The position numbers and the translations under genes are program-made. Below are positions 44,778 to 59,957 of a stretch of 64,000 nt of DNA, one piece after another. The notes under the pieces were generated by a model. The model did not search any database and was not told where the DNA came from. It was given only the letters and a program-made list of their open reading frames with translations. Source of the DNA: Candidatus Parcubacteria bacterium (GTDB taxonomy: Bacteria; Patescibacteriota; Patescibacteriia; Patescibacteriales; UBA12075). The DNA lies in NCBI GenBank assembly GCA_963814275.1, contig CAWFCE010000002.1, forward strand, positions 618,537 through 682,536, in the 5' to 3' direction. Each line of letters begins with the position of its first letter. The stretch's first letter is position 1.

Positions 44778-44948
44778 ATCCTAAATCCTAATATCTAAAC
44801 TCTAAACAATATCTAATAGATAATTTTTCAAATTTATTATGAACTACGACCTGGAGGACTGGAAAAGTCAAAATAGCAATCCTTTGTGATTTAAATTATT
44901 TGAATTTGTGATTTGTTTAGAATTTAGAAATTAGAATTTAGAATTTAA
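44778..44948. repeat. AT-rich inverted-repeat word element, copy C
   Basis: atcctaaatcctaatatctaaactctaaacaat ... gatttgtttagaatttagaaattagaatttagaattt. Abuts tRNA-Trp. Confidence 0.5.
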
Positions 44949-44953
44949 AGAAA

Positions 44954-45024
44954 GCGGGTGTAGTATAGTGGTAGTACAGGGCTCTCCAAAAGCTCTAGTG
45001 TGGGTTCGATTCCTACCACCCGTG
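44954..45024 (+). tRNA. tRNA-Trp (anticodon CCA), no encoded 3' CCA
   Basis: Acceptor GCGGGTG/CACCCGT (G1:U72). D-arm GTAT-AGTGGTA-GTAC. Anticodon arm GGGCT-CTCCAAA-AGCTC. T-arm GTGGG-TTCGATT-CCTAC. Discriminator G. Confidence 0.88.
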
Positions 45025-45029
45025 CGAAG

Positions 45030-45060
45030 AAAACTAGCTTAATATTAGGCTAGTTTTTTG
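45030..45060 (+). terminator. terminator hairpin after tRNA-Trp
   Basis: aaaactagc (45030-45038) pairs with gctagtttt (45049-45057), followed by a T-run. Confidence 0.7.
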
Positions 45061-45128
45061 GTTGAGGATCGAGGGAATCGAACTTTTTATTGATATTTGT
45101 TATAATTATTTATAATAACTATAAATAT

Positions 45129-45749
45129 ATGAAATTTTATTTATCATCCTATAAGCTTGGTGACAAAACAAACGAGCTAAAAGAAATAATCGCAAATAAA
45201 AATAAAAAAACCGCCTACATTTCTAACGCCTTAGATTTTTCTTCGGACTTGGAAAGGCGGGAGAAAAGTGAAGCGGCGGATATTGCGGACTTAGAAACTG
45301 TCGGCATGGCAATCGAAAAAGTAGATTTACGAGATTATTTTGGTAAACAAGAGGAGCTTAAAAAGAAATTGGATGAATATAGTGTGATTTGGGTAAGGGG
45401 TGGAAATGTTTTTGTATTAAGGCAAGCTATGAAGTTAAGCGGTTTCGACGAGATAATGACGCAACTCCTCAAAAAAGATGATATGATCTATGGTGGATAT
45501 AGCGCTGGTGTTTGTGTATTAGCACCAACACTTAGGGGCATTGATCTTGTTGATGATCCCAATATCCACCCATATCCAAAACAAACAGAAATTATCTGGG
45601 AAGGACTTAGTATTCTGGATTATTCAGTGGTCCCGCATTATGCTTCAAATCATTCTGAATCAGATGCGGTAAACAACGTAATCAAGTATATGGTTGATAA
45701 TAAGATATTGTTTAAAGCAATTAGTGATGGTGAAGTAATAATTTTTTAA
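45129..45749 (+). CDS. peptidase E-like (S51 family / class I amidotransferase-like)
   Basis: Start moved to ATG 45129 (MKFYLSSYKLG). VIWVRGGNVFVL and YGGYSAGVCVLAP (nucleophile Ser context). Confidence 0.72.
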   Translation: MKFYLSSYKLGDKTNELKEIIANKNKKTAYISNALDFSSDLERREKSEAADIADLETVGMAIEKVDLRDYFGKQEELKKKLDEYSVIWVRGGNVFVLRQAMKLSGFDEIMTQLLKKDDMIYGGYSAGVCVLAPTLRGIDLVDDPNIHPYPKQTEIIWEGLSILDYSVVPHYASNHSESDAVNNVIKYMVDNKILFKAISDGEVIIF

Positions 45750-45762
45750 TAATCAAACTAAA

Positions 45763-45890
45763 GCGCACAGTTGGCTAACATTCTTCAAAACTAGCTCAGG
45801 CACAGGCAGGGCAGTAACCCAATCAAAGGTTCGAAAGCTGTCCCTCCATGCGTGCGGATATAATCACAGCTAACGTTGGCTGTGATTTTT
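45763..45890 (+). repeat. decayed tRNA-like relic plus conserved hairpin (boundary 1)
   Basis: gcgcacagttggctaaca..ttcaaaac..ggttcgaaagctgtccctccatgcgtgcgg, then the hairpin aatcacagctaacgttggctgtgatt followed by ttt. Confidence 0.55.
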
Positions 45891-45936
45891 GTATGGGTGG
45901 TTGTGAAATCGAACATATTTTGTTAGTATTTGAGCT

Positions 45937-46338
45937 ATGAACAATATGGATGTAAATAATAAAATAATCAGACTATGCGTTGAAGGCTCAAAGGCTGAGT
46001 TTATGAAAAACACTGACAAAGCGATAAGATGTTATCAGCAGGCTTGGGATGAGCATCAGAATAATTATGAGGGTTGTATTGCCGCTCACTATTTGGCACG
46101 GTTTAAAGATGCTCCCGATGATATTTTTTATTGGAATAAAAAAGCGCTTGATTTGGCAAATTTGTCAGACAACGATGATGTAAAAGAATTTTTTCCATCA
46201 CTCTATGTAAACATGGGGAAGTCATATGAATTACTTGGTGATAAAAAGAACGCTGTGAAGTATTATGAAAAAGCAGAAAAATTCGGCATTAAACATAGTA
46301 ATAGTAATAAAAAAAAGATATCTAACCTCGGTATATAA
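45937..46338 (+). CDS. small TPR-like helical protein, conserved family of unknown function
   Basis: Pattern ...AIRCYQQAWDEH..AAHYLARFKD...WNKKALDLA...PSLYVNMGKSYELLGDKKNAVKYYEKA. Confidence 0.5.
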   Translation: MNNMDVNNKIIRLCVEGSKAEFMKNTDKAIRCYQQAWDEHQNNYEGCIAAHYLARFKDAPDDIFYWNKKALDLANLSDNDDVKEFFPSLYVNMGKSYELLGDKKNAVKYYEKAEKFGIKHSNSNKKKISNLGI

Positions 46339-46400
46339 AACAAATTATAAGGTTTTCCGGTGCGTCGCGTATTGTAAATTATCTTATAGCTGGAATAAAG

Positions 46401-46490
46401 ATTGGTTGTTTTCTTTTTAAAAAACAAGTTCGAATAAGAATAGGCACTCCGTGCCAGAAAAAAATAACTCTAGCCCCAGAGTTATTTTTT
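46401..46490 (+). repeat. decayed tRNA-Trp 3'-portion relic plus hairpin (boundary 2)
   Basis: attggttgttttctttttaaaaaacaagttcgaataagaataggcactccgtgcc, then the 13-bp stem aaaaaataactct / agagttatttttt. Confidence 0.55.
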
Positions 46491-46559
46491 GTTTTACTAT
46501 TTAGGATAATGGAATTTTTGTGTTATAATAAACATAATAAATATAAATATTATCTATTT

Positions 46560-48641
46560 ATGAAGAGCATTAAACTATACTTTGTTTTTGTCGCAATTTT
46601 TGTAATAGGCATTTACTTATTGCCATTAACTAGCGACGCCAATACAACCCCTTATCAATTATTGGATTCAGGATTAAATGTAAATTTTGGAGGTTATGGC
46701 AATATTAATTGTAATGTTAAGTGGGATGTAGCTAACGAAGGGCAGGGCAGTTATTTTCAAGAAAAATTCTATTACAAATATGGTGATGTGGTTACCAGTA
46801 AAAACGCGATCTGTGGCTGTATTCAAACTCCGGAAGCAGAATGCCATTGTCAGGGGACAATACAGAATCCAGTTCTTGGTGGTACTTATTATTATAAAAT
46901 TAAAGAGGATGGTGAATATCCGGAGGAATTCAAATATCTAGTTAACATACCGACCAAAATGTCAGATGACGCTGTCTCAATAGATGTAACTTCCAGTTCG
47001 GCTACAATTGAATGGACCACTGATGAAAGTTTGAGATCGAATGTTTTTTATTATCAGGTAGATAAAGACATAAACCAGGATTCAGTGCGTAATGATGAGT
47101 ATGCAAAAAATCATATTATTAAATTAGACGGCCTTAATCCTGGCACGGAATATGGGTTTACCGCAAATTCTATTGACGGAACCGGATATGGAGTAACAAG
47201 CGGTTTGTTGTTTTTTACTACCGAATCGGGTAATATATGTCATGATTCTGATGGTGGTCAAAATTATGAAGAAGCCGGTCAAGTGACTTTTGACGGCAGA
47301 GAGGATACGTCTTGGGGGAAAGATGATTGTGTTATTAGTAATGGGAATTATACGTATACCCCCACTACATATTGTCAGGGTAATAATTGTTATCAACGTG
47401 AAAAGGTGTGTGATAGCGAGGGTATAGATATTGTCGCGGAATATCATCCTTGTCCTGATGGCTGCACCAATGGTGCATGTCAGATAGATAATAAACAATC
47501 ATGCCAAGAGACTGATTCGGGAGACGATATATATACGAAAGGAAAAATAATTCTGTCGAATGGCTTTGAAATGGAAGATACTTGTGACCGATATAGTCTG
47601 CGTGAAACTTACTGTGTTAACGGTTCTTATGTCTATAGTACCAGAAATTGTAAATATGGTTGTGACGATGGCGCCTGTAAAAGCTCACTGCAAGATGAAG
47701 GTAATGACAATGACGAGCAATCAGATGATTCGGACGAGGTAATGTTGGAAGAGATAGAAATTGCCACTTGCATAGACGATGATGGAGGAAAGGACTATTC
47801 GCTTAGGGGCACTGTTAAATTCGGCTCAATAAAACATAGCGATGAATGCCAGGGAAATTATCTCGTAGAATATTGGTGTTCAAACAATCAGGTTTATAAT
47901 ACAGCCTACCGGTGCCCGGATGTTTGTATTGAAGGTGCCTGTACAGAGAATAAATCAAGTAACGATTCAAATGAAGCGGGAAGTAGTGATAACGGTCAGA
48001 TGGAATATTTGGAAGAAGGGAGCCGGGAAGGCGAAAACATTGATGTCGAACCAGAAAATGAAGTAGAAGGTGGGGCAAATATAAATATTAGTATAGAGCA
48101 AGTGCCAGAGCATGTAAATGGAAGAATATTGCTAAAAACGGAAGACGCGGGTAAGGCATATTACGTGAATCCGCAAAATAAAACAATGCATTATTTGGGG
48201 ACACCGGAAGATGCTTATTCGGTGATGCGTATTAATAGCACCGGTATAACCAATAATGATTTATATAAGATTCCTATCGGTGTTATATATGTAGAAGACG
48301 ATAGCGATTTTGATGGTTTGTCGGATAGTTTTGAAGTTTGTTTGGGTTTAAATCCTTACAGTAATGATTCTGACGGTGATGGTTATGGGGATGCAGATGA
48401 ATTGAATAAGGGATATAGTCCCTGGGGGAGTGGACGTCAAAATTTGGATTTAAATTTTTCGGATAGACAAAAAGGAAGGATATTTTTACAGATTGAAAAA
48501 GCTGGCGAAGCCTGGTATGTAAATCCCGAAGATAATAAGCGTTATTTTCTCGGCCGTCCGTCCGATGCTTTTAATGTTATGCGGAATTTGGGGTTGGGAA
48601 TATCCAATAAGGATTTCAAAGATTTAACCGGGGGTGAATAG
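46560..48641 (+). CDS. large secreted multidomain protein (FN3, three Cys-rich modules, Ca-binding Asp repeats, two copies of a ~50-aa GRIxLQ..GEAWYVxP domain)
   Basis: Start moved to ATG 46560 (MKSIKLYFVFVAIFVIG). FN3-like SATIEWTTDE..GTEYGF. Repeats of form CxDxDGGxxY...C...GAC x3. DSDFDGLSD..NDSDGDGYGDADE. GRILLKTEDAGKAYYVNP and GRIFLQIEKAGEAWYVNP. Confidence 0.75.
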   Translation: MKSIKLYFVFVAIFVIGIYLLPLTSDANTTPYQLLDSGLNVNFGGYGNINCNVKWDVANEGQGSYFQEKFYYKYGDVVTSKNAICGCIQTPEAECHCQGTIQNPVLGGTYYYKIKEDGEYPEEFKYLVNIPTKMSDDAVSIDVTSSSATIEWTTDESLRSNVFYYQVDKDINQDSVRNDEYAKNHIIKLDGLNPGTEYGFTANSIDGTGYGVTSGLLFFTTESGNICHDSDGGQNYEEAGQVTFDGREDTSWGKDDCVISNGNYTYTPTTYCQGNNCYQREKVCDSEGIDIVAEYHPCPDGCTNGACQIDNKQSCQETDSGDDIYTKGKIILSNGFEMEDTCDRYSLRETYCVNGSYVYSTRNCKYGCDDGACKSSLQDEGNDNDEQSDDSDEVMLEEIEIATCIDDDGGKDYSLRGTVKFGSIKHSDECQGNYLVEYWCSNNQVYNTAYRCPDVCIEGACTENKSSNDSNEAGSSDNGQMEYLEEGSREGENIDVEPENEVEGGANINISIEQVPEHVNGRILLKTEDAGKAYYVNPQNKTMHYLGTPEDAYSVMRINSTGITNNDLYKIPIGVIYVEDDSDFDGLSDSFEVCLGLNPYSNDSDGDGYGDADELNKGYSPWGSGRQNLDLNFSDRQKGRIFLQIEKAGEAWYVNPEDNKRYFLGRPSDAFNVMRNLGLGISNKDFKDLTGGE

Positions 48642-48790
48642 CAAGTTTCCACTTTATTATCATCCGCTCTCACGTGTTCCAGTAAAAATCAATCTTCCGT
48701 GCATGGGGAAATAAAACACAGGCTCAATAGGGCTTGTTTTTTGGAATAAATACTGATAAATTGATTATATTAAATATTAATAAGAATTTA

Positions 48791-50353
48791 ATGAATAAAA
48801 GAAATTTGATCATTGCGGCCAGTATACTCGTGTTTTTATTGTTAGGTTTCGCCCTAATCAAGAACAAACATAACAGTAACAACAATTTGGAGCAGACAGT
48901 TCTGGGGGATACGCTGGATATTTCCAAACAATATCTGAATTTGCGCCTTTTGACCGACAACACCTTGACCAAAGCATCAGAATATACGGATTACCGATCC
49001 TGGAACAAACAAATGGCCGCCTTGCTTAATATGTGGCAGGAGCTGGACAAAAGCGCCGGCGCCTTGGAAAGTCTGGCCGGTGGCTATGCCGGAGAAAAAG
49101 TCAGCTGGAATTTGCTTAATCCGGCGCAGGCTGTTACCACGGAAGAAATTAATAATGTTTTCGACAATGCCCCGGCCGGAAAAAAGATCAGAACTTTGGC
49201 GAAATTTTTAGGGGTGGATGCCAAGCGGGCCTATAAGATGCTGGAACAAACCCAAAACGAGGTCAAAGCCGATGCCTGGAATGAGGCCGGCGACGAATTC
49301 CAAAAATTGGAAACCACAGCTGTGGTGATAAAAGACGGCTGCAAGGTGGCCGGTTTTGTCGGCGGCGTGATAATTACCGGCGGTACCAGCGCCATTGCGG
49401 CCGGGTCAACCCTGTCTCAGGTGGCGGTGGTAGTGACCGGGGCTGATTTGGTTTTGGAAGTATCTGAAGACGCGGCCAACATCTCCCTGGGCAACAATAA
49501 TGACGCCGCCGCGCTTATCGGCGATATCAGGAAATTCACAGAGCCGGCGGCCGCGATCCTGGCCATAACGGATCTGCCGAACAATATCGCGACAAATTTC
49601 GATAAATTCAATGCCTTTATGTTCGGTTTGGACAATTTCCGCTCCACCGCCCAGGAAGGCAAAGTGATCGGCATTGCCTTGCCGGTTTACGATGGCAAGG
49701 AAATAAAGATCAATATTGATGGCGCGGTCATGGACCGGAGCGAACTGGAAGAGTGGCTGCAATCCCAGGGCTATGACGGTTATGAAGATTATTTGGCCGG
49801 TTTATTCGGCCCAGGCGCTGAAACAGCGGCGGAAGCCAGCGCCCCGGAGGAAGCAGCGCCTGCGGACGCGGCAGCGGCGGAAGCCAGCGCCCCGGAGGAA
49901 ACAGCAGGGGAGGCAGAAACCAAGGAAACCGCGGCGAATGACGGCAATTATCAAATCACCCCCGATACGGTTTACGGACAGGACGGCAAAGTCAGCATCA
50001 CCCTGGAAAGCCCTTTGGACCCTGTTTTCCAGAGAGGCCAGGCGAGGATGTGGGAGATAAAAGTAAACAATTGGGACGAGGAAACAGCCGGCCGAAGCTA
50101 TACTTGCGACTGGTCCTTCTATCTGGGCGGAGAACTTTACCGGGAGCAAGCGGATACCTGCCGCTTTACCAGCACCTTTATTGACAAAGCGGGCGATTTG
50201 ACGGCGGAGTTGAAGTTCAAAATTTTACAAGGGCGTTCTGTTTTTGACGAGAATGGCGAATATATCGATTATGTCAAAGACACGGTTGATACCCTGACTT
50301 TGACGCAGGAATACTCGGTCGAAGCGCCGGTGGATACTTATGTGCATCCGTAG
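48791..50353 (+). CDS. secreted/anchored protein of unknown function
   Basis: Start moved to ATG 48791 (MNKRNLIIAASILVFLLLGF). Internal 44-bp-spaced duplicate encoding AAEASAPEE. Confidence 0.6.
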   Translation: MNKRNLIIAASILVFLLLGFALIKNKHNSNNNLEQTVLGDTLDISKQYLNLRLLTDNTLTKASEYTDYRSWNKQMAALLNMWQELDKSAGALESLAGGYAGEKVSWNLLNPAQAVTTEEINNVFDNAPAGKKIRTLAKFLGVDAKRAYKMLEQTQNEVKADAWNEAGDEFQKLETTAVVIKDGCKVAGFVGGVIITGGTSAIAAGSTLSQVAVVVTGADLVLEVSEDAANISLGNNNDAAALIGDIRKFTEPAAAILAITDLPNNIATNFDKFNAFMFGLDNFRSTAQEGKVIGIALPVYDGKEIKINIDGAVMDRSELEEWLQSQGYDGYEDYLAGLFGPGAETAAEASAPEEAAPADAAAAEASAPEETAGEAETKETAANDGNYQITPDTVYGQDGKVSITLESPLDPVFQRGQARMWEIKVNNWDEETAGRSYTCDWSFYLGGELYREQADTCRFTSTFIDKAGDLTAELKFKILQGRSVFDENGEYIDYVKDTVDTLTLTQEYSVEAPVDTYVHP

Positions 50354-50413
50354 CAGCTTCGGGAAACAGAAAATTGCTAATATCGCGCGGGTAATGACTT
50401 TATAAATTAGAAA

Positions 50414-50437
50414 AGGTAACGTTACCTTAACGTTACC
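50414..50437. promoter_or_regulatory. palindromic candidate operator upstream of AbrB-like gene
   Basis: aggtaacgttacct is a perfect 14-bp palindrome (50414-50427). taacgttacc is repeated 11 bp later (50417-26 and 50428-37). Confidence 0.4.
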
Positions 50438-50451
50438 TCCGAAATAAACCT

Positions 50452-50607
50452 ATGAGAGAAGTCAGGAAGATAATTAAAAATGGGGCGGGGACTTATTATG
50501 TTTCTATTCCCAAAGAATATATGAAAGCTTTGAAATATAAGGACGGGCAGAAGGTGATGGTGGAGAAGCGGAAGAATGGGATATATATTTGTGACTGGGA
50601 GAAGTAG
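50452..50607 (+). CDS. AbrB/MazE/SpoVT-type DNA-binding protein (51 aa)
   Basis: Hand translation, absent from the track: MREVRKIIKNGAGTYYVSIPKEYMKALKYKDGQKVMVEKRKNGIYICDWEK. Fits the swapped-hairpin pattern (G..Y.V.IPK......L....G..V). Confidence 0.7.
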   Translation: MREVRKIIKNGAGTYYVSIPKEYMKALKYKDGQKVMVEKRKNGIYICDWEK

Positions 50608-50720
50608 GCGATATTCAGAGTGCCATCGTGGAGAACTGTGCAAATAATTGACTGATTAAAAAAAATATTATAAAGTTTTGGCATTGATTGCATATTATTA
50701 CCCCAAAAAAAGGAGCGATC

Positions 50721-50921
50721 ATGGCTGAGGACAAAAGCAGGTATATCGACATTCGATCTAACGGAGGAGGCGTAGTCGGCAGGGTTTTTGATGAAAATGG
50801 AGAAATAATACACGAACCCTTCAAAGGGCCGACAAGAAAAGCAATGTTAAAAAAGTTTAGGAGCAAATTCAATCCCAATCCATCAATAAATATAAAACGG
50901 CGCGGGAAAACTTATTTTTGA
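50721..50921 (+). CDS. small basic hypothetical protein
   Basis: ATG 50721 is preceded by aaaggag. MAEDKSRYIDIRSNGGGVVGRVFDENGEIIHEPFKGP... Confidence 0.45.
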   Translation: MAEDKSRYIDIRSNGGGVVGRVFDENGEIIHEPFKGPTRKAMLKKFRSKFNPNPSINIKRRGKTYF

Positions 50922-51133
50922 CATTGTTATTGTATCGCAAAAAACAAACTGCAGCTGGAATAAATACTACCCCCAGACATTAATCTGGGGGTTATTATTT
51001 CCAAAATAAAGAATCATCCTCCAGCAGCCGTGATTTTTGTATGACCAGAGAAAGATCGAATCTGATTCAAGTATATGTTACAATATAAAGTAGTATAGAA
51101 TTATTAACAAAATTAATTATTTATAAAAAAATT

Positions 51134-51292
51134 ATGTCAAAATATAAATGTACAATATGCGACTATATTTATGACGAAACGGCTGGCGATCCGGAACATG
51201 GGGTAGGGCCAGGCACGAAATTCCAAGATATTCCGGATACCTGGGTTTGCCCGCTCTGCGGCGTAGGCAAGGATAAATTTGTGAAGATTTAA
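51134..51292 (+). CDS. rubredoxin
   Basis: Hand translation, absent from the track: [52 protein letters not shown]. Two CxxC pairs in canonical rubredoxin spacing. Confidence 0.9.
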
Positions 51293-51306
51293 TAATAAGA
51301 ATATAA

Positions 51307-51393
51307 ATAGGTTGCTTTATTTCTAAAAAACAAGTTCGGATTAGAATTGGCACCTTGTGCGCATAAAGTCACAGCTAAAATTAGCTGTGACTT
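51307..51393 (+). repeat. decayed tRNA-Trp 3'-portion relic plus conserved hairpin (boundary 3)
   Basis: ataggttgctttatttctaaaaaacaagttcggattagaattggcaccttgtgcg, then aagtcacagctaaaattagctgtgactt. Confidence 0.55.
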
Positions 51394-51432
51394 TCGGTAT
51401 GGAACAATGCAGAAGCGAATCCGGATAACCGG

Positions 51433-51464
51433 AAAAATATATCAATAGCTATTGATATATTTTT
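51433..51464. promoter_or_regulatory. 32-bp perfect palindrome, candidate ArsR-family operator overlapping the promoter
   Basis: aaaaatatatcaatag|ctattgatatattttt. Possible -35 attgat (51451-56) and -10 tatact (51475-80), 18 nt apart. Located 26 nt upstream of the ArsR start. Confidence 0.5.
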
Positions 51465-51489
51465 GCTCAAGCAGTATACTTAATTTCAT

Positions 51490-51810
51490 ATGGTGGATAA
51501 ATGCTGCCTTCCCGGCAGTGTACAGCAAAAAGAACTCCTTAATCTTAAAAAAGATTTTGAGGTGTTAAACGATGTTAATCGGCTTCGTATTTTATGTTTG
51601 GTTAAAGCGCATAATGAGATTTGCGTGTGCGATATCCAAGAGTCGCTGGATCTGCCGCAAAATTTAGTGTCATATCATTTGGGCAAACTGAAAGACGCTG
51701 GTTTTGTAGAGTCGAGTAAGCAAGGCGCAAAGGTGATGTATCGCCAGGGGGTCAAAAAGGCAAAAGAATTTGAGAAAACTATTGTTAATTTATTAAATAA
51801 ACGCCCTTAA
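51490..51810 (+). CDS. ArsR/SmtB family metalloregulatory transcriptional repressor
   Basis: LNDVNRLRILCLV...EICVCDIQESLDLPQNLVSYHLGKLKDAGFV. Confidence 0.9.
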   Translation: MVDKCCLPGSVQQKELLNLKKDFEVLNDVNRLRILCLVKAHNEICVCDIQESLDLPQNLVSYHLGKLKDAGFVESSKQGAKVMYRQGVKKAKEFEKTIVNLLNKRP

Positions 51811-51862
51811 GGGAGTGCACCCCGGGAGTATTTCTTTCAGGGCGCCCTCAGGGCATAACATT

Positions 51863-52183
51863 ATGCGCAGTAAAACAAGTGCCTTTGGAGCACAAATACA
51901 AGTTTTAGGTTCGGGCTGCCCGACCTGCAAGCAGTTATTAGAAACTGTTAAAAAGGTGGCCAAAGATTTAAGCATTGACACGGAAGTAGAGTATATCACC
52001 GACGTCGCCAAGATGATCGAGATGGGCGTAATGCAGAGCCCGGTGCTGGCCGTTGACGGCAAGCCGGTTTTAACCGGCGGGGGTAAAGGCGAAGAGGAGA
52101 TAAAAGAAGCTATTTGCGGAGCGATGAAAACCATTGAAAATGAAAAGGGGCATGGTGGCTGTTCTTGCTGCGAGCATTGTTGA
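51863..52183 (+). CDS. thioredoxin-fold small redox-active disulfide protein with Cys-rich tail
   Basis: Start ATG 51863. IQVLGSGCPTCKQLLETVKKV...GVMQSPVLAVDGKPV. C-terminal GHGGCSCCEHC. Confidence 0.78.
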   Translation: MRSKTSAFGAQIQVLGSGCPTCKQLLETVKKVAKDLSIDTEVEYITDVAKMIEMGVMQSPVLAVDGKPVLTGGGKGEEEIKEAICGAMKTIENEKGHGGCSCCEHC

Positions 52184-52207
52184 TTTAATCAATCAAGTTA
52201 ACTGATT

Positions 52208-53179
52208 ATGGATATTTTTTACCCTTTAGAATTATTCGCTAAATGGATCACCTATGGCGTTTTTTCACTGCATGCCGGGCACTTGGCCGGAGCCTTGGAG
52301 TTTTTTGTTTATGATTCCTTGAAAATATTTGTTTTGATAATCTTCATTACTCATTTTATGAGTTTGTTAAGATTTTATTTACCGATCGAGAAATTGAAGG
52401 ACTTTCTAGCGGCGCACCGGATGTTCGGTCTGGACTATTTTTTGGCAACAGTGTTCGGGGCTCTTACCCCCTTTTGTTCTTGTTCGTCCATCCCTTTGTT
52501 TATTGGATTCATGGAAGCCCGAATTCCCCTGGGCGTTACTTTTGCATTTTTAATAACATCCCCCCTGGTTAATGAAATAGCTATCGGTTTGTTTATCGGT
52601 ATGTTTGGCATGAAGATTACCACCATATACGTTGTATCCGGTATTTTGATCGGTATGGTCGGAGGTTTTGTGATCGGTAAACTGAAGATGGAAAAATATG
52701 TAGCTGATTTTGTTTGGAATATCAAAGCTCAGAAATTAAGCAAGGCAGAGGCTAAAAAAGTTCCTTGGGGGGGAGTGTATAGAATAATTTCCCGAGAAGC
52801 TTGGGGGATCAGTAGAAAAATAATGTTGTATGTTCTGGCCGGGGTGGCTGTTGGCGGGTTGATTCATGGCTATGTCCCGGAAGGGTTTTTTGAAGTGTAT
52901 TTACGGAAGGCTGGCTTTTGGGGTGTCCCGCTGGCGGTAATTTTAGCTGTCCCGCTATATTCCAATGCCAGCGGCGTTATACCTATTATCCAGTCATTAA
53001 TAGCTAAAGGCGTGCCGCTGGGAACAGGCTTGGCTTTTATGATGGCTACCGTGGGACTTTCCTTGCCCGAAGCCATGATACTCAAGAAAGTGTTGAAATG
53101 GCAGTTGTTGGCTGCCTTTTTCGGGATCGTTGCCGTGGGCATAATTTTAATTGGCTATTTATTCAATATAATATTATAA
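52208..53179 (+). CDS. permease of the DUF318/ArsP-type family
   Basis: Polytopic. Signature LTPFCSCSSIPLFIGF. Typical partner of ArsR plus the small thioredoxin. Confidence 0.82.
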   Translation: MDIFYPLELFAKWITYGVFSLHAGHLAGALEFFVYDSLKIFVLIIFITHFMSLLRFYLPIEKLKDFLAAHRMFGLDYFLATVFGALTPFCSCSSIPLFIGFMEARIPLGVTFAFLITSPLVNEIAIGLFIGMFGMKITTIYVVSGILIGMVGGFVIGKLKMEKYVADFVWNIKAQKLSKAEAKKVPWGGVYRIISREAWGISRKIMLYVLAGVAVGGLIHGYVPEGFFEVYLRKAGFWGVPLAVILAVPLYSNASGVIPIIQSLIAKGVPLGTGLAFMMATVGLSLPEAMILKKVLKWQLLAAFFGIVAVGIILIGYLFNIIL

Positions 53180-53222
53180 CAAAAAATAAGCCGGCGCTTA
53201 TTTAAATCAATATATAAAAACC

Positions 53223-53735
53223 ATGAAAAAATACATTTTATTTTCTTTTTTATTTTTTGTTTCTTTATCCTTGGCTGGGTGTAGCCAGGGACAAGCAGAA
53301 GCGCAAATAAAAAATAACGATAAACTAAAGAACACTGCTCAAGCAGCCAATAAGCAAGTGAATAATTCTAACCAATATCCGGTTTCGAGCATTGAGACTG
53401 TGGCTGATAAGGTGCAGGTTTTTCTTTTTCATGGCATAGAGCGCTGTGCCACTTGCATTGCCATTGGTAAATTTGCCAATGAAACAGTTAATGAAAGATT
53501 TAAGAATGAGCTTCAGTCTGGTGAAATTGAATTCAGGGAAATTAATATAGACTTGCCGGCCAACAAAGAACTGGCTAGAAAATTTCAAGCCAGCGGGTCA
53601 GCTTTGTATCTCAATGGTATCAGGGGGAACGAGGACAACATTATGCAGGATACAAAGGTGTGGAGCTTAACAGGAAATCCGACGGCCTTCAAAGACTATC
53701 TTGAAGGGAGAATAAATACTTTGCTAGGAAGATAA
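53223..53735 (+). CDS. thioredoxin-like lipoprotein with CxxC
   Basis: Lipobox LSLAGC. FHGIERCATCIAIGKF. I recall similar proteins being named ArsF-family in ars-type clusters; unverified. Confidence 0.55.
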   Translation: MKKYILFSFLFFVSLSLAGCSQGQAEAQIKNNDKLKNTAQAANKQVNNSNQYPVSSIETVADKVQVFLFHGIERCATCIAIGKFANETVNERFKNELQSGEIEFREINIDLPANKELARKFQASGSALYLNGIRGNEDNIMQDTKVWSLTGNPTAFKDYLEGRINTLLGR

Positions 53736-53736
53736 A

Positions 53737-54456
53737 ATGGATTTTATAAATGCTTTAATGGATAGTTATAATATCCCGGTGTTTACGGCTTTCTTGCTTG
53801 GTGTTTTGACTTCAATCAGTCCTTGCCCTCTGGCCACCAATATTACGGCGGTCGCCTATATATCGAAAGAGCTGAAAACAATTAAGAACACCTTGTTCAA
53901 CGGGTTGTTCTATACCCTGGGCAGAGGGATTAGCTATACACTCCTGGCTACTTTGGTTTATTTCGGGATATCAAGTTTTCAGATTTCCAATATTTTTGAG
54001 GGTTGGGGAGATAAAGTGTTAGGACCAATATTGATTATTATCGGCTTAATAATGTTTGGAGCCATAAATATAAATATTGGGATCAAAAGCGAGAAGGTAG
54101 CGAGAATAAAAGAGTGGCTAGCGCAAAAAGGATATATTGGCTCACTTCTTTTGGGTGTTATTTTTGCCCTGGCATTTTGCCCGTATAGCGGGGTTTTATT
54201 TTTTGGAGTTTTGATACCGCTGGTATTGAGTTCGACCGAGGGCTTGCTGCTGGCACCGTTATTTGCGCTAGGCACCGGGTTGCCGGTTATTATATTTTCT
54301 TTTCTGATCGCTTTCTCAATGCAAAAAGTTAGCCAGGCTTTCCAAATAGTGCAAAAGCTTGAAAGAGTGATGAGATATATTGTGGCCAGCGTGTTTATAG
54401 CAACGGGACTATATTATTCGTATATTTTACTTAAATTCCTATTCCTTCTTTTTTAA
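53737..54456 (+). CDS. CcdA/DsbD-like transmembrane thiol-disulfide transfer protein
   Basis: Six TM segments. Cys-Pro motifs SISPCPLATN and LAFCPYSG in TM1 and TM4. Confidence 0.72.
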   Translation: MDFINALMDSYNIPVFTAFLLGVLTSISPCPLATNITAVAYISKELKTIKNTLFNGLFYTLGRGISYTLLATLVYFGISSFQISNIFEGWGDKVLGPILIIIGLIMFGAININIGIKSEKVARIKEWLAQKGYIGSLLLGVIFALAFCPYSGVLFFGVLIPLVLSSTEGLLLAPLFALGTGLPVIIFSFLIAFSMQKVSQAFQIVQKLERVMRYIVASVFIATGLYYSYILLKFLFLLF

Positions 54457-54523
54457 TTCAGGCAGGATAATATTTGTAGTATTCATATAATAAGCACTAA
54501 TATCGTAACCAATCCAGCAAAAT

Positions 54524-54553
54524 AAAATCACAGCTAATATTGGCTGTGATTTT
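54524..54553 (+). repeat. conserved hairpin (boundary 4)
   Basis: aaaatcacagctaatattggctgtgatttt. Preceded by gtaaccaatcc (compare gtaacccaatc at boundary 1). Followed by ..gcagcaagttcgaacc. Confidence 0.6.
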
Positions 54554-54627
54554 TGATCGGTGAGCAGCAAGTTCGAACCTAACCAGGTAATTTGCTATAA
54601 TTAAAGCATCATATTGAAAATAATTTT

Positions 54628-54994
54628 ATGATAATTGATTCACACGTACTATATCCCTATTTGAAAATAACGCAATTAACCCGGAAGATGCGTTTAAACT
54701 TCTTTTGGCGGATATGGTGAGGAACGAAGTCGGCTATGTAGTTGTAATTCCTGATAATTTTGAGAATTCGGACAGTATAGCCGATTTGGATAAAGCAATT
54801 CAATTGGCCGGAAAGTACAGCAATGTTTTTTCTTGGGAAGTCCACAAATTGTTCAAAGAGGTTCAAGCGAATTGGAAAAATACATAAAATTATTAAAAGG
54901 AGGAACTGTTAAAGGATTAAAATTTTTTCCAGGCCACGGTCCGTATTATCCCAGCGATGAAAGGTTGTTGCCATATTATGGAATATATTTATGA
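54628..54994 (+). pseudogene. amidohydrolase (TIM-barrel metal hydrolase) 5' fragment with frameshifts
   Basis: Frame 1: MIIDSHVLYPYL. Frame 2: ..NPEDAFKLLLADMVRNEVGYVVVIP..LAGKYSNVF. Frame 3: ..VKGLKFFPGHGPYYPSDERLLPYY. The C-terminal half is absent. Confidence 0.5.
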
Positions 54995-55033
54995 TAGTAT
55001 AATATTATATTTTGTTAAATATAAGAAATAATT

Positions 55034-55819
55034 ATGCCGAATAAAATTTATCATAAAATAGACAGTCAACAAAATACGCAAATAAAATTTCTTGAGAAAT
55101 TGAATTCAAAGAAATATCGTCTGGAATCAAAAAAATTCACAGTTGAAAATTTGACAATTATTTTGGACGCATTGAAAGATGGTTTTGATTTTGAGGCTTT
55201 ATTCGTTACGGAAGAATTTGCCTTGAAACATAAAAAAGAGTTGGCATATATCGAAAATAATTCTCATTTACGAAATTTTTATTTGATTGATTCCAAACTG
55301 AATAAGCATTATTCAAATCTGGATACCCCTTCCGGTATTACGGCGGTGTACGATATTATTGAAAAAAAGCTTGACGTTGCATCTGTGGTATATCTGAACG
55401 GGATCGGTGACCCGGGAAATCTCGGAGCAATTTTACGCAGCGCCTTGGCCTTTGGCTTTGCCAATATCGTCCTTGATGAAAATTGTGTCGATGCCCACAA
55501 TCCAAAAGTTGTAAACGCCGCCAAGGACGCAATTTTTAAATTGAACATTATTGAAGACAAAACCGGAAACTGGCTAAAGAGCACTGATTTGCCGATCTAT
55601 GGCACAAGTTCTCATTTCGGGTCAAATTTATCAGAATTTAAGCCAGCCAAGGCCTATTGCCTGGTTTTGGGTTGCGAGAGCCATGGGGTCAACTCGGAAA
55701 TCGTTAAAATGGCAATAGAAAATATAAAGATCGAGATGTCTTCCCGTATTGAATCTTTGAACGTGGCGGCATCAGCCGCAATTCTTTTTTATGAGCTTAA
55801 GCAAAAACAAATTAATTAG
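55034..55819 (+). CDS. TrmH/SpoU family RNA 2'-O-methyltransferase (RlmB-like)
   Basis: GIGDPGNLGAILRSALAFG, LVLGCESHGV, SLNVAASAAILFYE. Confidence 0.88.
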   Translation: MPNKIYHKIDSQQNTQIKFLEKLNSKKYRLESKKFTVENLTIILDALKDGFDFEALFVTEEFALKHKKELAYIENNSHLRNFYLIDSKLNKHYSNLDTPSGITAVYDIIEKKLDVASVVYLNGIGDPGNLGAILRSALAFGFANIVLDENCVDAHNPKVVNAAKDAIFKLNIIEDKTGNWLKSTDLPIYGTSSHFGSNLSEFKPAKAYCLVLGCESHGVNSEIVKMAIENIKIEMSSRIESLNVAASAAILFYELKQKQIN

Positions 55820-57395
55820 AATCGAGGAAGTAACCTTGAGGTTGGATGAAGATGAAGAAGTTTTAATAACAAAAATTTCTCAGATTTTGTTTTTGCCCGA
55901 ATCGGATATAATTAGTTTTAAAATTGCCAGAAAAAATATTGATTCACGTAAAAAGAATATTCTTTTTGTATATTCTTTGGATGTTTTAGTTAAAAATATC
56001 GAAGCAGTCAAAAAATGGGACACAGTCCATAGGGTCAGAATATATGAACCGTACGTATATCAAGAAAAGAATATTGTTAAAAAAAATAGTAAAAATATCG
56101 TAATCGTCGGTAGCGGTCCTTGCGGCTTGTTTTCCGCTTTAGTTTTGGCAAGGGCAGGATTTAAGCCCTTGATAATAGAGCGTGGCAAAGATATAGATTC
56201 ACGGGTAAAAGATGTTGAAAATTTTTTCCAGAAAAGCATTCTGAATCCCGGGTCAAATATTCAGTTCGGAGAAGGCGGTGCCGGAACATTTTCCGACGGG
56301 AAGCTTTATACCCTGATAAACGATCCTCGCTCAAAATATGTATTTTCCGAACTTGTTAAAGCCGGTGCTCCGGAAGAAATCATATGGAGCGGGACGCCTC
56401 ATATCGGTACGGATAAGTTGCGGGGAGTTATAAAAAATATTCGGAAAGAAATTATTGGATTGGGCGGGCGTATCAGGTTCGAAACATGTTTAACCGGGCT
56501 TGAAATCAAGAATAGCAAACTGGAAGGAATAGTTCTTGACGATAAAGAAAAAATTTCCGTTGGCAACCTTGTTTTAGCCATCGGCCATTCAGCCCGCGAT
56601 ACATACCAAATGCTATTTGATGCGCAACTTAAAATGACCCAAAAGAATTTTTCCATCGGACTTCGCATTGAACACAACTCTGAAATGATAAATAAATCCC
56701 AGTATGGAAATTCGTATAATCATCCGAAACTTGGTGCGGCGAAATATAAGCTTGTTCAGCATCTTAAAGATAAGCGATCGGTTTATACCTTTTGCATGTG
56801 TCCCGGCGGGTATGTAGTAGGGGCTGCTTCCGAAGAGGGCGGCGTGGTGGTGAACGGGATGAGTAAATATGCCCAAGACGGTGAAAATTCCAATAGCGCG
56901 TTATTGGTGCAGATAAAGTCAAGCGATTTCAGCTCGGATCATCCTTTGTCAGGAATTGAATTTCAGCGCCAGTGGGAAAGGCAAGCTTTCTCGGCTGGCG
57001 GCGGCAACTATTTTGCCCCCGCCCAACTGGTTGGCGATTTTTTAAGAAAAAGGGCATCAAGGGTTATTGGCAGCGTTAGGCCAAGCTATAAGCCGGGCGT
57101 GACAATGACTTCGCTTGAAGCTTGTCTGCCTGATTATGTGATTAAAAGTATCAGAGAGGCACTGCCTCTTTTCGATAAAAAGCTAAAAGGTTTTGCCCGG
57201 CCTGATGCTGTTTTAACGGGGGTAGAGACCAGGAGTTCATCGGCAGTGCGATTGGAGCGAAATGAAAAATGCGAATCAAGCATAGCCGGAGTCTATCCGG
57301 CCGGGGAAGGAGCGGGACATTCCGGAGGAATCGTTTCTTCGGCAATTGACGGCATGAGGGTGGCAGAAAAAATAATTGAAAAGTATTTAATATAA
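55791..57395 (+). CDS. FAD-dependent oxidoreductase (COG2509-type)
   Basis: N-terminal ..IARKNIDSRKK.. then IVIVGSGPCGLFSALVLARAGFKPLIIERG. C-terminal YPAGEGAGHSGGIVSSAIDG. Confidence 0.85.
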   Translation: MSLSKNKLIRIEEVTLRLDEDEEVLITKISQILFLPESDIISFKIARKNIDSRKKNILFVYSLDVLVKNIEAVKKWDTVHRVRIYEPYVYQEKNIVKKNSKNIVIVGSGPCGLFSALVLARAGFKPLIIERGKDIDSRVKDVENFFQKSILNPGSNIQFGEGGAGTFSDGKLYTLINDPRSKYVFSELVKAGAPEEIIWSGTPHIGTDKLRGVIKNIRKEIIGLGGRIRFETCLTGLEIKNSKLEGIVLDDKEKISVGNLVLAIGHSARDTYQMLFDAQLKMTQKNFSIGLRIEHNSEMINKSQYGNSYNHPKLGAAKYKLVQHLKDKRSVYTFCMCPGGYVVGAASEEGGVVVNGMSKYAQDGENSNSALLVQIKSSDFSSDHPLSGIEFQRQWERQAFSAGGGNYFAPAQLVGDFLRKRASRVIGSVRPSYKPGVTMTSLEACLPDYVIKSIREALPLFDKKLKGFARPDAVLTGVETRSSSAVRLERNEKCESSIAGVYPAGEGAGHSGGIVSSAIDGMRVAEKIIEKYLI

Positions 57396-57433
57396 TAGAT
57401 TCAAAGTTAAATTATCCTAATGCGGGCATTTAA

Positions 57434-57524
57434 ACAGGATACTTTATTTCCAAAAGACAAGTTCGAATGAGCAAAGGCGCCTCGTGCGAAAATAAAATCA
57501 GCCCCTTCGGGCTGAATTATTTTC
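57434..57524 (+). repeat. decayed tRNA-Trp 3'-portion relic plus hairpin (boundary 5)
   Basis: aacaggatactttatttccaaaagacaagttcgaatgagcaaaggcgcctcgtgcg, then tcagccc-cttc-gggctga followed by a T-rich run. Confidence 0.55.
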
Positions 57525-57668
57525 GTCTGGTGCGGCAAGTAGTGAAGACACCGTGACAGATGTGAAAAGATCAATTGCGTAGTAAAGGAATTTTCGTAGA
57601 GTATTATCAGAATCGTGGTTTGCTGATGGGGCGGAGCTCTTGACCAGTCGAATGATGCGGTCCGCCCC

Positions 57669-57689
57669 TTCGATTCCTACCACCCGTGC
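57669..57689 (+). repeat. perfect 21-nt direct repeat of the tRNA-Trp 3' end (attR-like)
   Basis: ttcgattcctaccacccgtgc is identical to 45005-45025. Confidence 0.95.
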
Positions 57690-57864
57690 AAAATAAATTT
57701 ACTACTGATATTAGCTGTTATTCTTGGTACGAAAGATAAATTCGAGCTAAATTAAAAAATCTGCTATAATAATACATGGAGATGAAGCCCTCCGTGGAAT
57801 AATTTCAAAACCGCTTTTAGCTAATGGCCTCTACTTGAAGTAGGGGTTTTTGTATCCAAAATTT

Positions 57865-58272
57865 ATGAACGGATTTGTTGAATATTTATTAAAGGTCATA
57901 GCCATCCTGTTCAAGATAGGATTGGTTTTGTTTGTTATCGGAGTAATCGCATATTTTTCCTTGTCCAGATACATCGATTACCGGATGAAACAAGTCCAGG
58001 AAAAGGAAGCCATTGAACGGGAACAGCAGGCGAAAGAGCGGGAGCAATACGAAAAAGAGTCGGCTGACAAACCCTCGCAGGAAGAGCTGGATAAAGAAGC
58101 GGCTTATTCAAGGTGTGTTAACAGCGCTTATAAAGAGTATAAAAAGAAGTACGATGAGGAATGTTCCAAGATCATTATGGACGGGGAATGCGTGGTGTCG
58201 CAGGAAAAACGCTATGAACTGGATGGAATCTATATGCACGATAAGGCGGATTGTGAAAAATTAAAGCAATAA
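57865..58272 (+). CDS. membrane-anchored coiled-coil protein with Cys-rich C-terminus
   Basis: ATG 57865. One TM, EREQQAKEREQYEKE, four Cys in the tail. Confidence 0.5.
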   Translation: MNGFVEYLLKVIAILFKIGLVLFVIGVIAYFSLSRYIDYRMKQVQEKEAIEREQQAKEREQYEKESADKPSQEELDKEAAYSRCVNSAYKEYKKKYDEECSKIIMDGECVVSQEKRYELDGIYMHDKADCEKLKQ

Positions 58273-58276
58273 AATT

Positions 58277-58489
58277 ATGTCAGATACGATCATGCTGGTT
58301 TTGGGGACAATCTTCGGCATTATCGCGTCAGCAATGGCTTACCTGATCACGTATGAAGAGTACAGGAAGCATCAGTTTCCCAAACAGAGATTAATAAAAA
58401 CTTCCCTGCAGTCAGCATTATTCACTTTTTTGTTTTTTCTGATCCTGTCGCTCATACTGGGTTATGTATTTTCTAATAACTTAAATTAA
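58277..58489 (+). CDS. small two-TM membrane protein
   Basis: ORF only. Starts 4 nt after the previous stop. Confidence 0.45.
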   Translation: MSDTIMLVLGTIFGIIASAMAYLITYEEYRKHQFPKQRLIKTSLQSALFTFLFFLILSLILGYVFSNNLN

Positions 58490-58616
58490 AATATGGCCAC
58501 AATAAAAAAATTACACGCTACAGTATCAAATTTCTTGGCTTTGTGATCAGCTAAAATTAAAGCCAAGGACTAGAAACAGAGACGGTTTTACTATATCGGC
58601 GAAAACTTTTGAGCAG

Positions 58617-59018
58617 ATGTATTATCGCACTTTATTAAATGGCGATATAGATAATTGCATTATTAATAAATCTTTGGATGAATTGGAATATGTGTCAGAC
58701 ATGGCATTTGTGGTTTTAATAAAGAAGAAATTGAAGATCAAATTTAACAACAACGAGTATATTGAAAAAATCCAATCAATACAAAATCTTGATGGCGGAT
58801 TCGGTTTTAACGACGGCAGTAGTTCTTTTTTGGAAAATACTTATTTAGCAGTTAAGGCATTATCGGCATTAAATCAAAAACCCCTTTTATTAAAAGAATG
58901 TGTTAGCCTTATTGAGGGTTGCCGTGTAAATAATGGGGGATACGGCAGGTCTACGTTGACCGTGCCAACTTTGCAAGCCACATATATGGCTATTAAGTGT
59001 TTGCAGATTTTAAATTAA
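58617..59018 (+). CDS. short protein with prenyltransferase/squalene-oxidase-type alpha-alpha repeats
   Basis: QNLDGGFGFNDGSSSFLENTYLAVKAL and NNGGYGRSTLTVPTLQATYMAIKCL. Only two repeats, so possibly a fragment. Confidence 0.45.
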   Translation: MYYRTLLNGDIDNCIINKSLDELEYVSDMAFVVLIKKKLKIKFNNNEYIEKIQSIQNLDGGFGFNDGSSSFLENTYLAVKALSALNQKPLLLKECVSLIEGCRVNNGGYGRSTLTVPTLQATYMAIKCLQILN

Positions 59019-59068
59019 TTTAAAAGTGATAAATTTTCAGTTTTTTTTCTTTTATGGAGTAGCAAAAC

Positions 59069-59099
59069 GGTTCGAACACTGTCCACGACCCCGTGCAAG
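59069..59099 (+). repeat. tRNA-like relic (boundary 7), same subfamily as boundary 1
   Basis: ggttcgaacactgtccacgaccccgtgcaag compared with 45828-45857 ggttcgaaagctgtccctccatgcgtgcgg. The blocks ggttcgaa, ctgtcc and cgtgc have identical spacing. Confidence 0.5.
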
Positions 59100-59157: not shown

Positions 59158-59193
59158 GGAAAAACTGCGGCCAGAAGCCGCAGTTTTAATATC
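59158..59193. terminator. bidirectional hairpin, copy 1
   Basis: gaaaaactgcggc-cagaa-gccgcagttttaatat. Confidence 0.7.
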
Positions 59194-59208: not shown

Positions 59209-59862
59209 TCAGACGCCCAGGACTCGCGAAGAATCGTAGAGGCGGGATTTTACCACCGGAATCGCAAGGGAGTATTTGGCCAGGAGGCTCTTGACCAGGT
59301 CGACGACCCAGTCTTCGGCGTAGGGGGCGACATAGATCCGGTCGATCACCCGGCCGATCCCGATCGGGATGAAAATGCCCTTGTAGCGGCATTTGTTCTT
59401 GTCCTGGCAATGGATGATCGCCCGCACTTCCTTTTCGTGCTCGAAACTTTTCCGCTTGTAGGCGAAAGGCTTGATCGGGTCGGAGCTGGGCTTTTTGATC
59501 AGCGAATAATCGATATAATTGATCTGCCCGAAGTGAATATCATGGCCGTCCGCTTCGGCGAATGATTCCGCGAGCTTGTCGTAGGTCGAGACGATCGCCA
59601 ACCCTTCGTTCTTTTGGGCATAAAGCTCCCACATGGCGGCCGACTCGTATTCGCTCTGGTGCCAGCAATTGAGGAAAGCTTGCTTGCGGACATGTTCGTG
59701 GTCGGTCAGGGGATAGGACCCTTCGTAGGGGTCGAGAAGCTGGTCGGCCCGGGCGAAGTAGAGCGAGGCGGAATTCAGGAGGGAGACGAATTTGGTGAAA
59801 TCGAGATATTTCCACAAAGGGATGTCGCGCCTTGATGGTGCCTGGAAATCGAGGTTAGTCAT
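59209..59862 (-). CDS. DUF2971-like protein
   Basis: PLWKYLDFTKFVSLLNSASLYFARADQLLDPYEG matches my recollection of the DUF2971 N-terminal pattern. The gene is GC-rich. Confidence 0.62.
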   Translation of the reverse strand: MTNLDFQAPSRRDIPLWKYLDFTKFVSLLNSASLYFARADQLLDPYEGSYPLTDHEHVRKQAFLNCWHQSEYESAAMWELYAQKNEGLAIVSTYDKLAESFAEADGHDIHFGQINYIDYSLIKKPSSDPIKPFAYKRKSFEHEKEVRAIIHCQDKNKCRYKGIFIPIGIGRVIDRIYVAPYAEDWVVDLVKSLLAKYSLAIPVVKSRLYDSSRVLGV

Positions 59863-59919: not shown

Positions 59920-59957
59920 ATGAAAAACTGCGGTTTGTGGCCGCAGTTTTAATATAG
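59920..59957. repeat. bidirectional hairpin, copy 2
   Basis: gaaaaactgcgg-tttgtg-gccgcagttttaatat. Same arms and flanks as copy 1 with a different loop. Confidence 0.7.

Follow-up and report, generated by a model that had tools for sequence, protein, structure and literature searches.

In staphylococci, the composite islands of the staphylococcal cassette chromosome (SCC) are anchored at the 3' end of one conserved gene, rlmH, where units without the ccr recombinase genes, such as psiSCC, ACME (the arginine catabolic mobile element) and ars modules, accumulate in tandem between degenerate direct repeats of the integration site; many of the modules carry no recombinase, the SCC recombinases are large serine recombinases (LSRs), and the modules are shuffled between lineages (PMC7029136). 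Similarly, the cis-mobilizable elements (CIMEs) of the ICESt1/ICESt3 type of accretion have kept their att sites and lost their integration genes, and an incoming element integrates at the kept att site and builds tandems (PMC5704250). The tycheposon islands in the streamlined genome of Prochlorococcus lie beside tRNA genes, and successive integrations push the older elements inward (10.1101/2020.12.28.424599). In this study, we analysed a 64,000-nt stretch of the genome of a Candidatus Parcubacteria bacterium (assembly GCA_963814275.1, contig CAWFCE010000002.1, positions 618,537 to 682,536 of the forward strand; hereafter the window) and found that 45026-59096 consists of about eight accessory modules, co-oriented and in tandem, with the 3' end of a tRNA-Trp gene as the anchor of the array. 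As in SCC, the modules are demarcated by degenerate direct repeats of the integration site, and as in CIMEs, such sites are kept where integration genes are missing. By kind, the array is a tandem accretion or composite island that has a conserved gene's 3' end as its site, and no such platform in this phylum was present in the literature searched.

Every module follows one plan: it begins right after CCGTGC with a terminator hairpin and a GGAATCGAAC box, continues with its own genes and ends in GTTCnAA-N19-GTGC (Table 1). The sizes range from 0.2 to 3.2 kb, and every gene is co-oriented with the tRNA gene. The boundary site, which was found by comparing the window with a relative (contig L124), covers approximately 100 bp and has three parts. 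The first is GTTCnAA-N-CCGTGC with a fixed span of 27 nt (22 nt in the tRNA); the second consists of about 8-12 A-rich nucleotides, a covarying terminator hairpin and a T run; the third consists of about 20 nt followed by GGAATCGAAC, which is the inverse of the T-loop sequence. We refer to the 27-nt GTTC..GTGC span at the module ends as the P-type site and to the 22-nt span at the tRNA end as the B-type site. Site 0, at the tRNA itself, forms an 80-nt imperfect palindrome centred on 45043/45044. The 27-nt span was invariant across 17 divergent copies whose inner bases vary. The block CnCCCGTGC beside the proposed crossover is common to the tRNA end and the module ends, with CGTGC nearly invariant, and the hairpin after GTGC keeps 11 pairs, with compensatory changes in 10 of the 11.

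A profile of the site matched the window at 44997, 45825, 46422, 51328, 54497, 57455 and 57670, always on the plus strand; the matches were confined to 44997-57735, and the remaining 50 kb of the window gave zero matches. The pattern GTTC-N19-GTGC was found six times against 1.04 expected (starts at 45829, 46428, 48676, 51334, 57461 and 59070), all on the plus strand and within 45829-59096. Module 5 ends in a degenerate site (..CCAATCCAGC) with a hairpin at 54524-54553, covered by an nhmmer match at 54497-54588 (E=3e-11), and a truncated copy of the site lies at about 51010-51075, inside module 4. The counts across relatives were made on non-redundant related loci carrying tRNA-Trp. Downstream of the tRNA, in 190 kb, the pattern had 21 matches on the tRNA strand and 0 on the opposite strand; upstream, both strands together had three in 541 kb. 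Arrays of 2-6 sites were present in L124, L125, L147, L171 and L191. The sites are confined to the position downstream of tRNA-Trp and to the tRNA strand, both here and in related Patescibacteria.

A sequence-only reading of this DNA had described the part between the tRNA and a displaced copy of its 3' end as the att footprint of one integrated island. Much of its description was confirmed. ARAGORN and Rfam agree that tRNA-Trp opens the segment, TTCGATTCCTACCACCCGTGC is present exactly twice in 64 kb, at the tRNA and at 57669-57689 as claimed, no third match was found in the 64 kb with up to 3 mismatches allowed (chance expectation 0), and the two spot counts of 16 and 35 G+C in 60 nt were both exact. 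The identity starts at the T-loop and stops one base past the discriminator, with zero extension on either side, and a displaced direct repeat of the 3' part together with an intact tRNA gene is the classical mark of a tRNA island. The G+C content (GC) is 0.460 over 1-44953 and 0.475 in the 10 kb left of the segment, but 0.401 in 45026-57668; only 5 of 514 sliding 12.6-kb windows were as AT-rich as the segment, and the minimum begins at 44801. The left compositional boundary at the tRNA is real. On the right side, the claim that the segment is AT-richer than its surroundings did not hold, and there is no boundary at 57.7 kb: the next 1.4 kb (57690-59096) has a GC of 0.363, even AT-richer than the segment, and the value beyond 59096 is 0.476. 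The right boundary is 59096, where the last P-type site (59070-59096) closes module 8 and the array, outside the segment first proposed and where GC recovers. Within the segment, GC is uneven, from 0.34 to 0.45 per module. A local peak of 0.55 in the AT-rich array is due to G+C-rich tandem repeats (AAEASAPEE-type low complexity) at 49824-49905 in the gene of the 539-aa protein.

These boundaries bear on the simplest explanation, a single 12.6-kb fossil island between the two 21-mers that arose by one integration and later lost its integrase by deletion. It would account for the exact 21-nt direct repeat of the tRNA 3' end and for the low GC that starts sharply at the tRNA. We consider it very improbable: six further sites, internal and external, partition the segment, the AT-rich accessory DNA and the last site reach 59096, and the modules have separate histories. 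The 21-mer closes only the 200-nt non-coding module 7, and with its conserved upstream hairpin it recurs in L156, L191 and L124 as a tiny gene-less unit of 59-245 nt ending in the tRNA-Trp 3' copy; the hairpin region at 57624-57677 is 83% identical to L124 7840-7893. Classical tRNA islands of the Islander type, with a tyrosine integrase, differ from this locus in that their integrase usually lies beside the tRNA, whereas the array has none inside, and the repeats here do not mark the ends of one contiguous foreign segment. The att-like nature of the tRNA and its displaced copy was upheld, while the one island gave way to an array of about eight modules that extends to 59096.

The conserved arm of the 21-mer module reads GGGGC..GGTCCGCCCC-TTCGATTCC, and the copy itself reads cTTCGATT, without the G of GTTC, unlike the other sites. 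From this sequence, it looks like a T-loop-crossover scar of the tyrosine-integrase kind or a secondary attB, and we infer an att-type scar that is separate from the module sites and older than them. ARAGORN and Rfam (gathering and E-value modes) found no tmRNA or other RNA gene ending in copy 2, and folding of 57527-57692 was no better than that of shuffles (z = -0.18). A decayed tRNA upstream of copy 2 was rejected, as it would have no T-stem partner and showed no residual similarity. A search of genome contigs with the 21-mer returned largely Bacteroidota tRNA-Trp genes with the same 3' end, and two useful patescibacterial loci. One viral contig with the 21-mer (L003, 6964-7000) has 29 nt of a tRNA-Trp 3' end but no tRNA; the fragment lies between PD-(D/E)XK nuclease and Cpn60 genes, with no integrase nearby.

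Gene content, with type IV pilus genes, Wzy-TPR proteins, NAD ligase and GatA, together with the homologues found, assigns the window to a patescibacterium akin to Falkowbacteria/Paceibacteria. The comparison with relatives supported the description of the cargo as accessory, and also its horizontal acquisition. The left flank (a 124-aa protein, an AI-2E transporter and tRNA-Trp) is kept in more than 30 related contigs, in the closest available of which the transporter is 73% identical, and the content downstream of tRNA-Trp differs in nearly every one of them, with type I restriction-modification, a histone-deacetylase-like gene, a metallophosphatase, IMPDH and an FtsX permease among the genes found there. 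The right flank of the window was in none of the related contigs compared. By these comparisons, the tRNA-Trp site is plainly a hypervariable hotspot.

The peptidase S51 module gave the sharpest view of a single unit. Its 45043-45855 matched L124 11471-12285 at 92% in DNA and 94.5% in protein, against 70% and 66%, respectively, for the adjacent core gene; the two genomes align at about 95% as far as the C of GTGC in each, and the sequences are unrelated from the next base on. In L124, other modules separate this one from the tRNA, which is 8.2 kb away. A second S51 paralog (protein P0137), 66% identical, lies outside the window on the 1.27-Mb source contig; since 66% is a typical orthologue level, the copy in the array is an extra acquisition. 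Judged by these identities, the S51 module is a recent transfer. The 27-nt site is kept behind the S51 gene in L202 and L204, and the five-gene ArsR-DsbD operon of module 5 is the first unit after tRNA-Trp in L155. Modules differ between genomes and take different positions, and at least one has been recently exchanged. Some site subfamilies are near-identical between lineages with a core protein only 45-58% identical (GTTCGAACACTGTCCACGACCCCGTGC here versus GTTCTAACACAGTCCACGACCCCGTGC in L171).

A hotspot of this kind could also be produced by homologous recombination, that is, by transformation and RecA acting between conserved flanks, with the sites as a terminator or 3' untranslated region module that travels with the genes. 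The hairpins are terminator-like and covarying, with 26 terminator-like sites in the array region against 11.8 expected; the window also has type IV pilus genes of the sort that typically serve DNA uptake in these bacteria; and a left flank kept in more than 30 relatives with everything right of the tRNA variable is a pattern that such exchange would give. Against this, a terminator needs neither a fixed 27-nt GTTC..GTGC box nor a CCGTGC that resembles the tRNA end. The sites were absent from all other terminators of the window and are strictly strand-specific, the S51 homology stops to the base at GTGC, and the site subfamilies are better conserved between lineages than the core genes. We believe that homologous recombination as the main route is improbable.

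The search for a recombinase covered, with Pfam, every sizeable open reading frame (ORF) in 38-64 kb and 14 further ORFs upstream, roughly half of the upstream ones. None of these ORFs, whether between the repeats, in the 6 kb or so outside them or further upstream, proved to be an integrase, transposase or phage gene, and a tblastn search of the window using one XerD probe and six LSRs was negative, which agrees with the earlier statement that integrase, excisionase, transposase and phage genes are missing from the segment and its surroundings. A tyrosine recombinase was found neither in the window nor in about 755 kb of related tRNA-Trp loci (XerD-probe tblastn; Pfam of candidate ORFs), and the same searches at the related loci gave no recombinase matching the 21-mer scar. 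The XerD probe readily detected Xer genes in unrelated Bacteroidota loci. The sequence-only reading had allowed for an unrecognised recombinase or for integration in trans; Pfam profiles and tblastn of the ORFs gave none of the former, and the evidence favours the latter.

Several other candidates were rejected. A hidden recombinase among the ORFs without an assigned function was set aside, as the 710-aa, 539-aa and 170-aa proteins are secreted or lipoprotein-like. The ORF at 59209-59862 on the minus strand showed weak, repeated tblastn matches to LSR N-termini (FAYKRKS.E.E), which lie inside its DUF2971 domain and were taken as chance; it had no Resolvase Pfam match even at E = 10. Integrative mobile elements exploiting Xer (IMEX) and dif sites, prompted by GTGCGCATAA in one site, were rejected, as there is no shared dif-like 11-6-11 site and no Xer gene in the window; GC skew of the window indicated no replication terminus. 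For a system of repetitive extragenic palindromes (REP) and their associated tyrosine transposase (RAYT), no RAYT gene (Y1 HUH) is present in the window, and one RAYT-like gene occurs in relative L205 only. This HUH protein (L205 16620-17183, HMH and YDHIIR motifs) is encoded in an accessory region with an S51 homologue, Fic, RadC and a DpnI-type restriction system.

The missing tyrosine recombinases also bear on accretion along the CIME route, in which integrase islands would have entered the tRNA-Trp 3' end repeatedly, lost their integration modules and left att scars, with the 27-nt sites as element arms beside a 6-7-bp overlap CCGTGC(R). The perfect 21-mer begins in the T-loop, which is the classical sublocation of tyrosine integrases in tRNA genes (Islander, PMC4383910). 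Decay to recombinase-less cis-mobilizable elements with renewed integration at a kept att site has been documented (PMC5704250), as have tRNA-flanked Prochlorococcus islands with scattered partial tRNAs (10.1101/2020.12.28.424599). This route is unlikely in our judgement: LSRs are the only recombinases found at the site, no tyrosine recombinase turned up in the loci searched, and the fixed 5-nt offset of GTTC has no counterpart in tyrosine-integrase sites. CIMEs differ further in that they use tyrosine integrases and conjugative elements, whereas the array has no conjugation genes and its modules are much smaller and more numerous.

Genes for LSRs of 534-535 aa (Resolvase, Recombinase and Zn_ribbon_recom domains) lie convergent with tRNA-Trp in L063/L207, L148 and the Falkowbacteria contigs L209-L212, and the LSR reading frame extends into the final bases of the tRNA; L217 adds another case. 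Next to the LSR genes are those of a rolling-circle Rep (REP_ORF2-G2P) and a Zot-type ATPase, with small ORFs, and the whole makes up an inovirus-like prophage of about 8 kb (L207 8800-11605; L209 about 3100-11608). The same-family LSRs of sister elements enter tRNA-Asn(gtt) in the same manner in L213, L218, L295 and L296. This patescibacterial family combines Zot, a REP_ORF2-G2P Rep and an LSR of 534-550 aa whose frame ends inside the tRNA-Trp or tRNA-Asn(gtt) 3' end. There are earlier reports of inoviruses with serine recombinases and of inoviruses from this radiation (PMC6813254). Beside the Rep gene of L207, at 8230-8560, lie three iteron-like units of about 120 bp, each an inverted repeat around TTACGGGTAA, which may be a replication origin. 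The 14-kb array had no match among known phage records, and viral contigs searched with the boundary hairpin or the prophage junction patterns gave none, or known loci only.

The geometry of the sites points in the same direction as these enzymes. In serine integrases such as those of A118/LI, Bxb1 and phiC31, the motif of the zinc-ribbon domain is 5 bp closer to the centre in attB than it is in attP, and attB sites are approximately 10 bp shorter; crystallography and mutagenesis have established this shift (PMC3783163). In the 6.4-kb viral contig L214, the junction arm of the tRNA-Asn elements is joined to AT-rich non-tRNA DNA (aaaGTTCTGAAAATATATAATTCGTGGAGC followed by CAAGAGAGACGAAGC), whereas the integrated copies read GGTTCGAATCCGACCCCGGGAGC followed by CAAGAGAGACGAAGC; GTTC is 27 nt from the junction in L214 and 22 nt in the integrated copies. 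By this junction, L214 appears to be a free, non-integrated form with an intact attP. The module ends and the tRNA-Trp end of the window differ by the same 5 nt, 27 against 22, and the shift shared by L214/tRNA-Asn and the window matches the attP/attB geometry described for serine integrases (PMC3783163). This signature in the sequence points to phage-borne serine integrases.

Our preferred explanation, to which we would assign roughly an even chance, is that the array is a set of recombinase-less cassettes served in trans and that the enzyme is most likely an LSR of the inovirus-like family with Zot and rolling-circle Rep. A circular module would carry one attP-type half-site, followed by its own terminator and promoter, and would recombine with the tRNA-Trp end by crossover in the invariant CCGTGC, with the LSR provided by a phage. 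The tRNA end, whose GTTCGA motif lies 22 nt from the end of GTGC, would act as an attB-type half-site, and the module end, in which that motif is 5 nt more distant, as an attP-type half-site. The tRNA sequence would be kept after insertion, the hairpin of the module would become the new terminator of the tRNA, and the 27-nt site of the module would land in front of the previous module. As each insertion would leave the tRNA end attB-like, the site could be used again, successive insertions would place the newest module beside the tRNA, and arrays would grow from the tRNA outward. Such growth fits the observed layout and parallels the logic of the staphylococcal composite islands (PMC7029136). 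Going further, the tRNA-Trp end might be a reusable, integron-like gene-capture platform run by phage-borne LSRs, with cassettes circulating among lineages; we hold this broader idea only tentatively.

Several points weigh against service in trans by an LSR. Neither an LSR nor a remnant of one was detected in the window by tblastn, and the 1.27-Mb source contig was absent among the best 120 of 204 LSR homologues. Neither regex nor profile recognised a 27-nt site at the far end (attR) of the tRNA-Trp prophages, and therefore the attP of the tRNA-Trp-specific LSRs is taken by analogy with one genome of the tRNA-Asn type. To the right of GTGC, the hairpin and the GGAATCGAAC box at about +60 do not mirror the left half-sites, which is true also of bona fide prophage junctions; two related half-sites around a central dinucleotide were not seen, and the model does not account for the conserved box about 60 nt downstream of the crossover. 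To our knowledge, canonical LSRs do not recombine attP with attL, and therefore the repeated use of the tRNA end assumes a non-discriminating right half-site. The phage genes lie opposite to the tRNA and the module genes are co-oriented with it, and therefore the modules are not decayed phages. Direct evidence of recent transfer concerns one module only, and the resemblance of the 21-mer to a T-loop crossover typical of tyrosine integrases suggests that more than one system may have acted.

Compared with the systems described above, the locus differs from SCC in its target (a tRNA gene instead of rlmH) and in its host, a patescibacterium. The array has no ccr-like gene, inovirus-like phages at the same site in other lineages carry the candidate LSR, and the sites have an attP/attB-type 5-nt offset and a terminator hairpin; the likeness to SCC is one of sequence organisation. 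Tycheposons carry their own recombinase (tyrosine in 910 of 937, LSR in the rest) and leave partial tRNAs as scars, whereas the modules here have none and most of their scars are a distinct 27-nt site. Known LSR att sites measure 40-50 bp, comprise two related half-sites and pair strictly as attP x attB; in the array, a left half-site alone can be recognised, and one site is assumed to have taken insertions repeatedly. The array resembles integrons in its co-oriented cassettes at one site, which would stand newest first, and in imperfect-palindrome boundaries with structure conserved over sequence. Unlike integrons, it has no IntI, attI or R''/R' (RYYYAAC/GTTRRRY) cores, its boundary sites read GTTC...GAAC, the reverse order, and its modules hold up to 5 genes each and bring promoters, regulators and terminators of their own.

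Table 1. Positions in the window of the tRNA-Trp gene, the 21-nt repeat pair, site 0 and the modules of the array
Feature	Position	Strand	Basis or boundary
tRNA-Trp (cca)	44954-45025 (caller end 45024/5)	+	ARAGORN; Rfam RF00005, 61.8 bits
tRNA-Trp 3' end, anchor site of the array, GTTCGATTCCTACCACCCGTGC			GTTC..GTGC span 22 nt, B-type; sequence
Boundary site 0: tRNA 3' end, terminator hairpin, GGGAATCGAAC	44997-45091	+	nhmmer E=3e-12; inverted repeat
21-nt repeat, copy 1	45005-45025	+	T-loop to discriminator +1
Module 1: peptidase S51 (45090/45129-45749)	45026-45855	+	P-type site 45829-45855; Pfam
Module 2: 133-aa TPR protein	45856-46454	+	P-type site 46428-46454
Module 3: 710-aa secreted fn3/TSP3-repeat protein	46455-48702	+	P-type site 48676-48702; hairpin 48718-48737
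Module 4: 539-aa membrane-anchored protein, no assigned function, G+C-rich	48703-51360	+	P-type site 51334-51360
Module 5: operon of ArsR, thioredoxin_3, ArsP permease, 170-aa lipoprotein, DsbD_2	51361-54519	+	Pfam
Module 6: SpoU rRNA methylase and FAD-dependent protein	54520-57487	+	P-type site 57461-57487; hairpin 57498-57515
Module 7: 200-nt non-coding unit	57488-57689	+	G+C-rich hairpin region 57624-57668, then 21-nt copy 2
21-nt repeat, copy 2	57669-57689	+	End of module 7
Module 8: fluoride riboswitch (57769-57840), two small transmembrane ORFs, 133-aa ORF	57690-59096	+	Rfam RF01734; Pfam

Some further observations concern the modules and their surroundings. In module 8, the fluoride riboswitch (RF01734, 41.8 bits) precedes two small membrane ORFs of 140 and 70 aa (57769-58489). 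Neither ORF matched CrcB or EriC-F in Pfam, and the two may form a fluoride-responsive gene pair not described before. Just beyond the array, the DUF2971 gene is flanked by near-identical hairpins (AAAAACTGCGG..CCGCAGTTTTAATAT) at 59161-59190 and 59920-59950, and gene and hairpins may form a separate small insertion at the array end. On the left, AT-rich low-complexity repeats (AATCCTAAATCCTAA; GAATTTAGAAATTAGAATTTAGAATTT) occupy 44780-44950 and separate the AI-2E gene from the tRNA. Within these repeats, in a low-complexity run just short of the tRNA, the Logan contig L001 ends, and this end was not accepted as a variant junction. The other assembly of the organism (ERR11571143) gave fragments matching the window. 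A 157-nt block at 42760-42916, too short for the ORF length cut-off, occupies the rpmG (ribosomal protein L33) position and is 71-75% conserved in relatives.

Bacteria of the candidate phyla radiation have tiny genomes in which few mobile elements have been recognised, and their ways of gaining accessory genes are largely unexplained. The locus studied here points to a defined route, in which one tRNA end collects small self-contained modules whose cargo covers surface proteins, thiol and metal handling, RNA methylation and a fluoride-responsive unit. If this is true, the boundary site would provide a searchable signature for accessory DNA in these genomes, the array would be a natural case of recombinase-less cassettes mobilised in trans outside staphylococci, and the inovirus-like prophages would supply new tRNA-specific serine integrases with readable attP/attB pairs.

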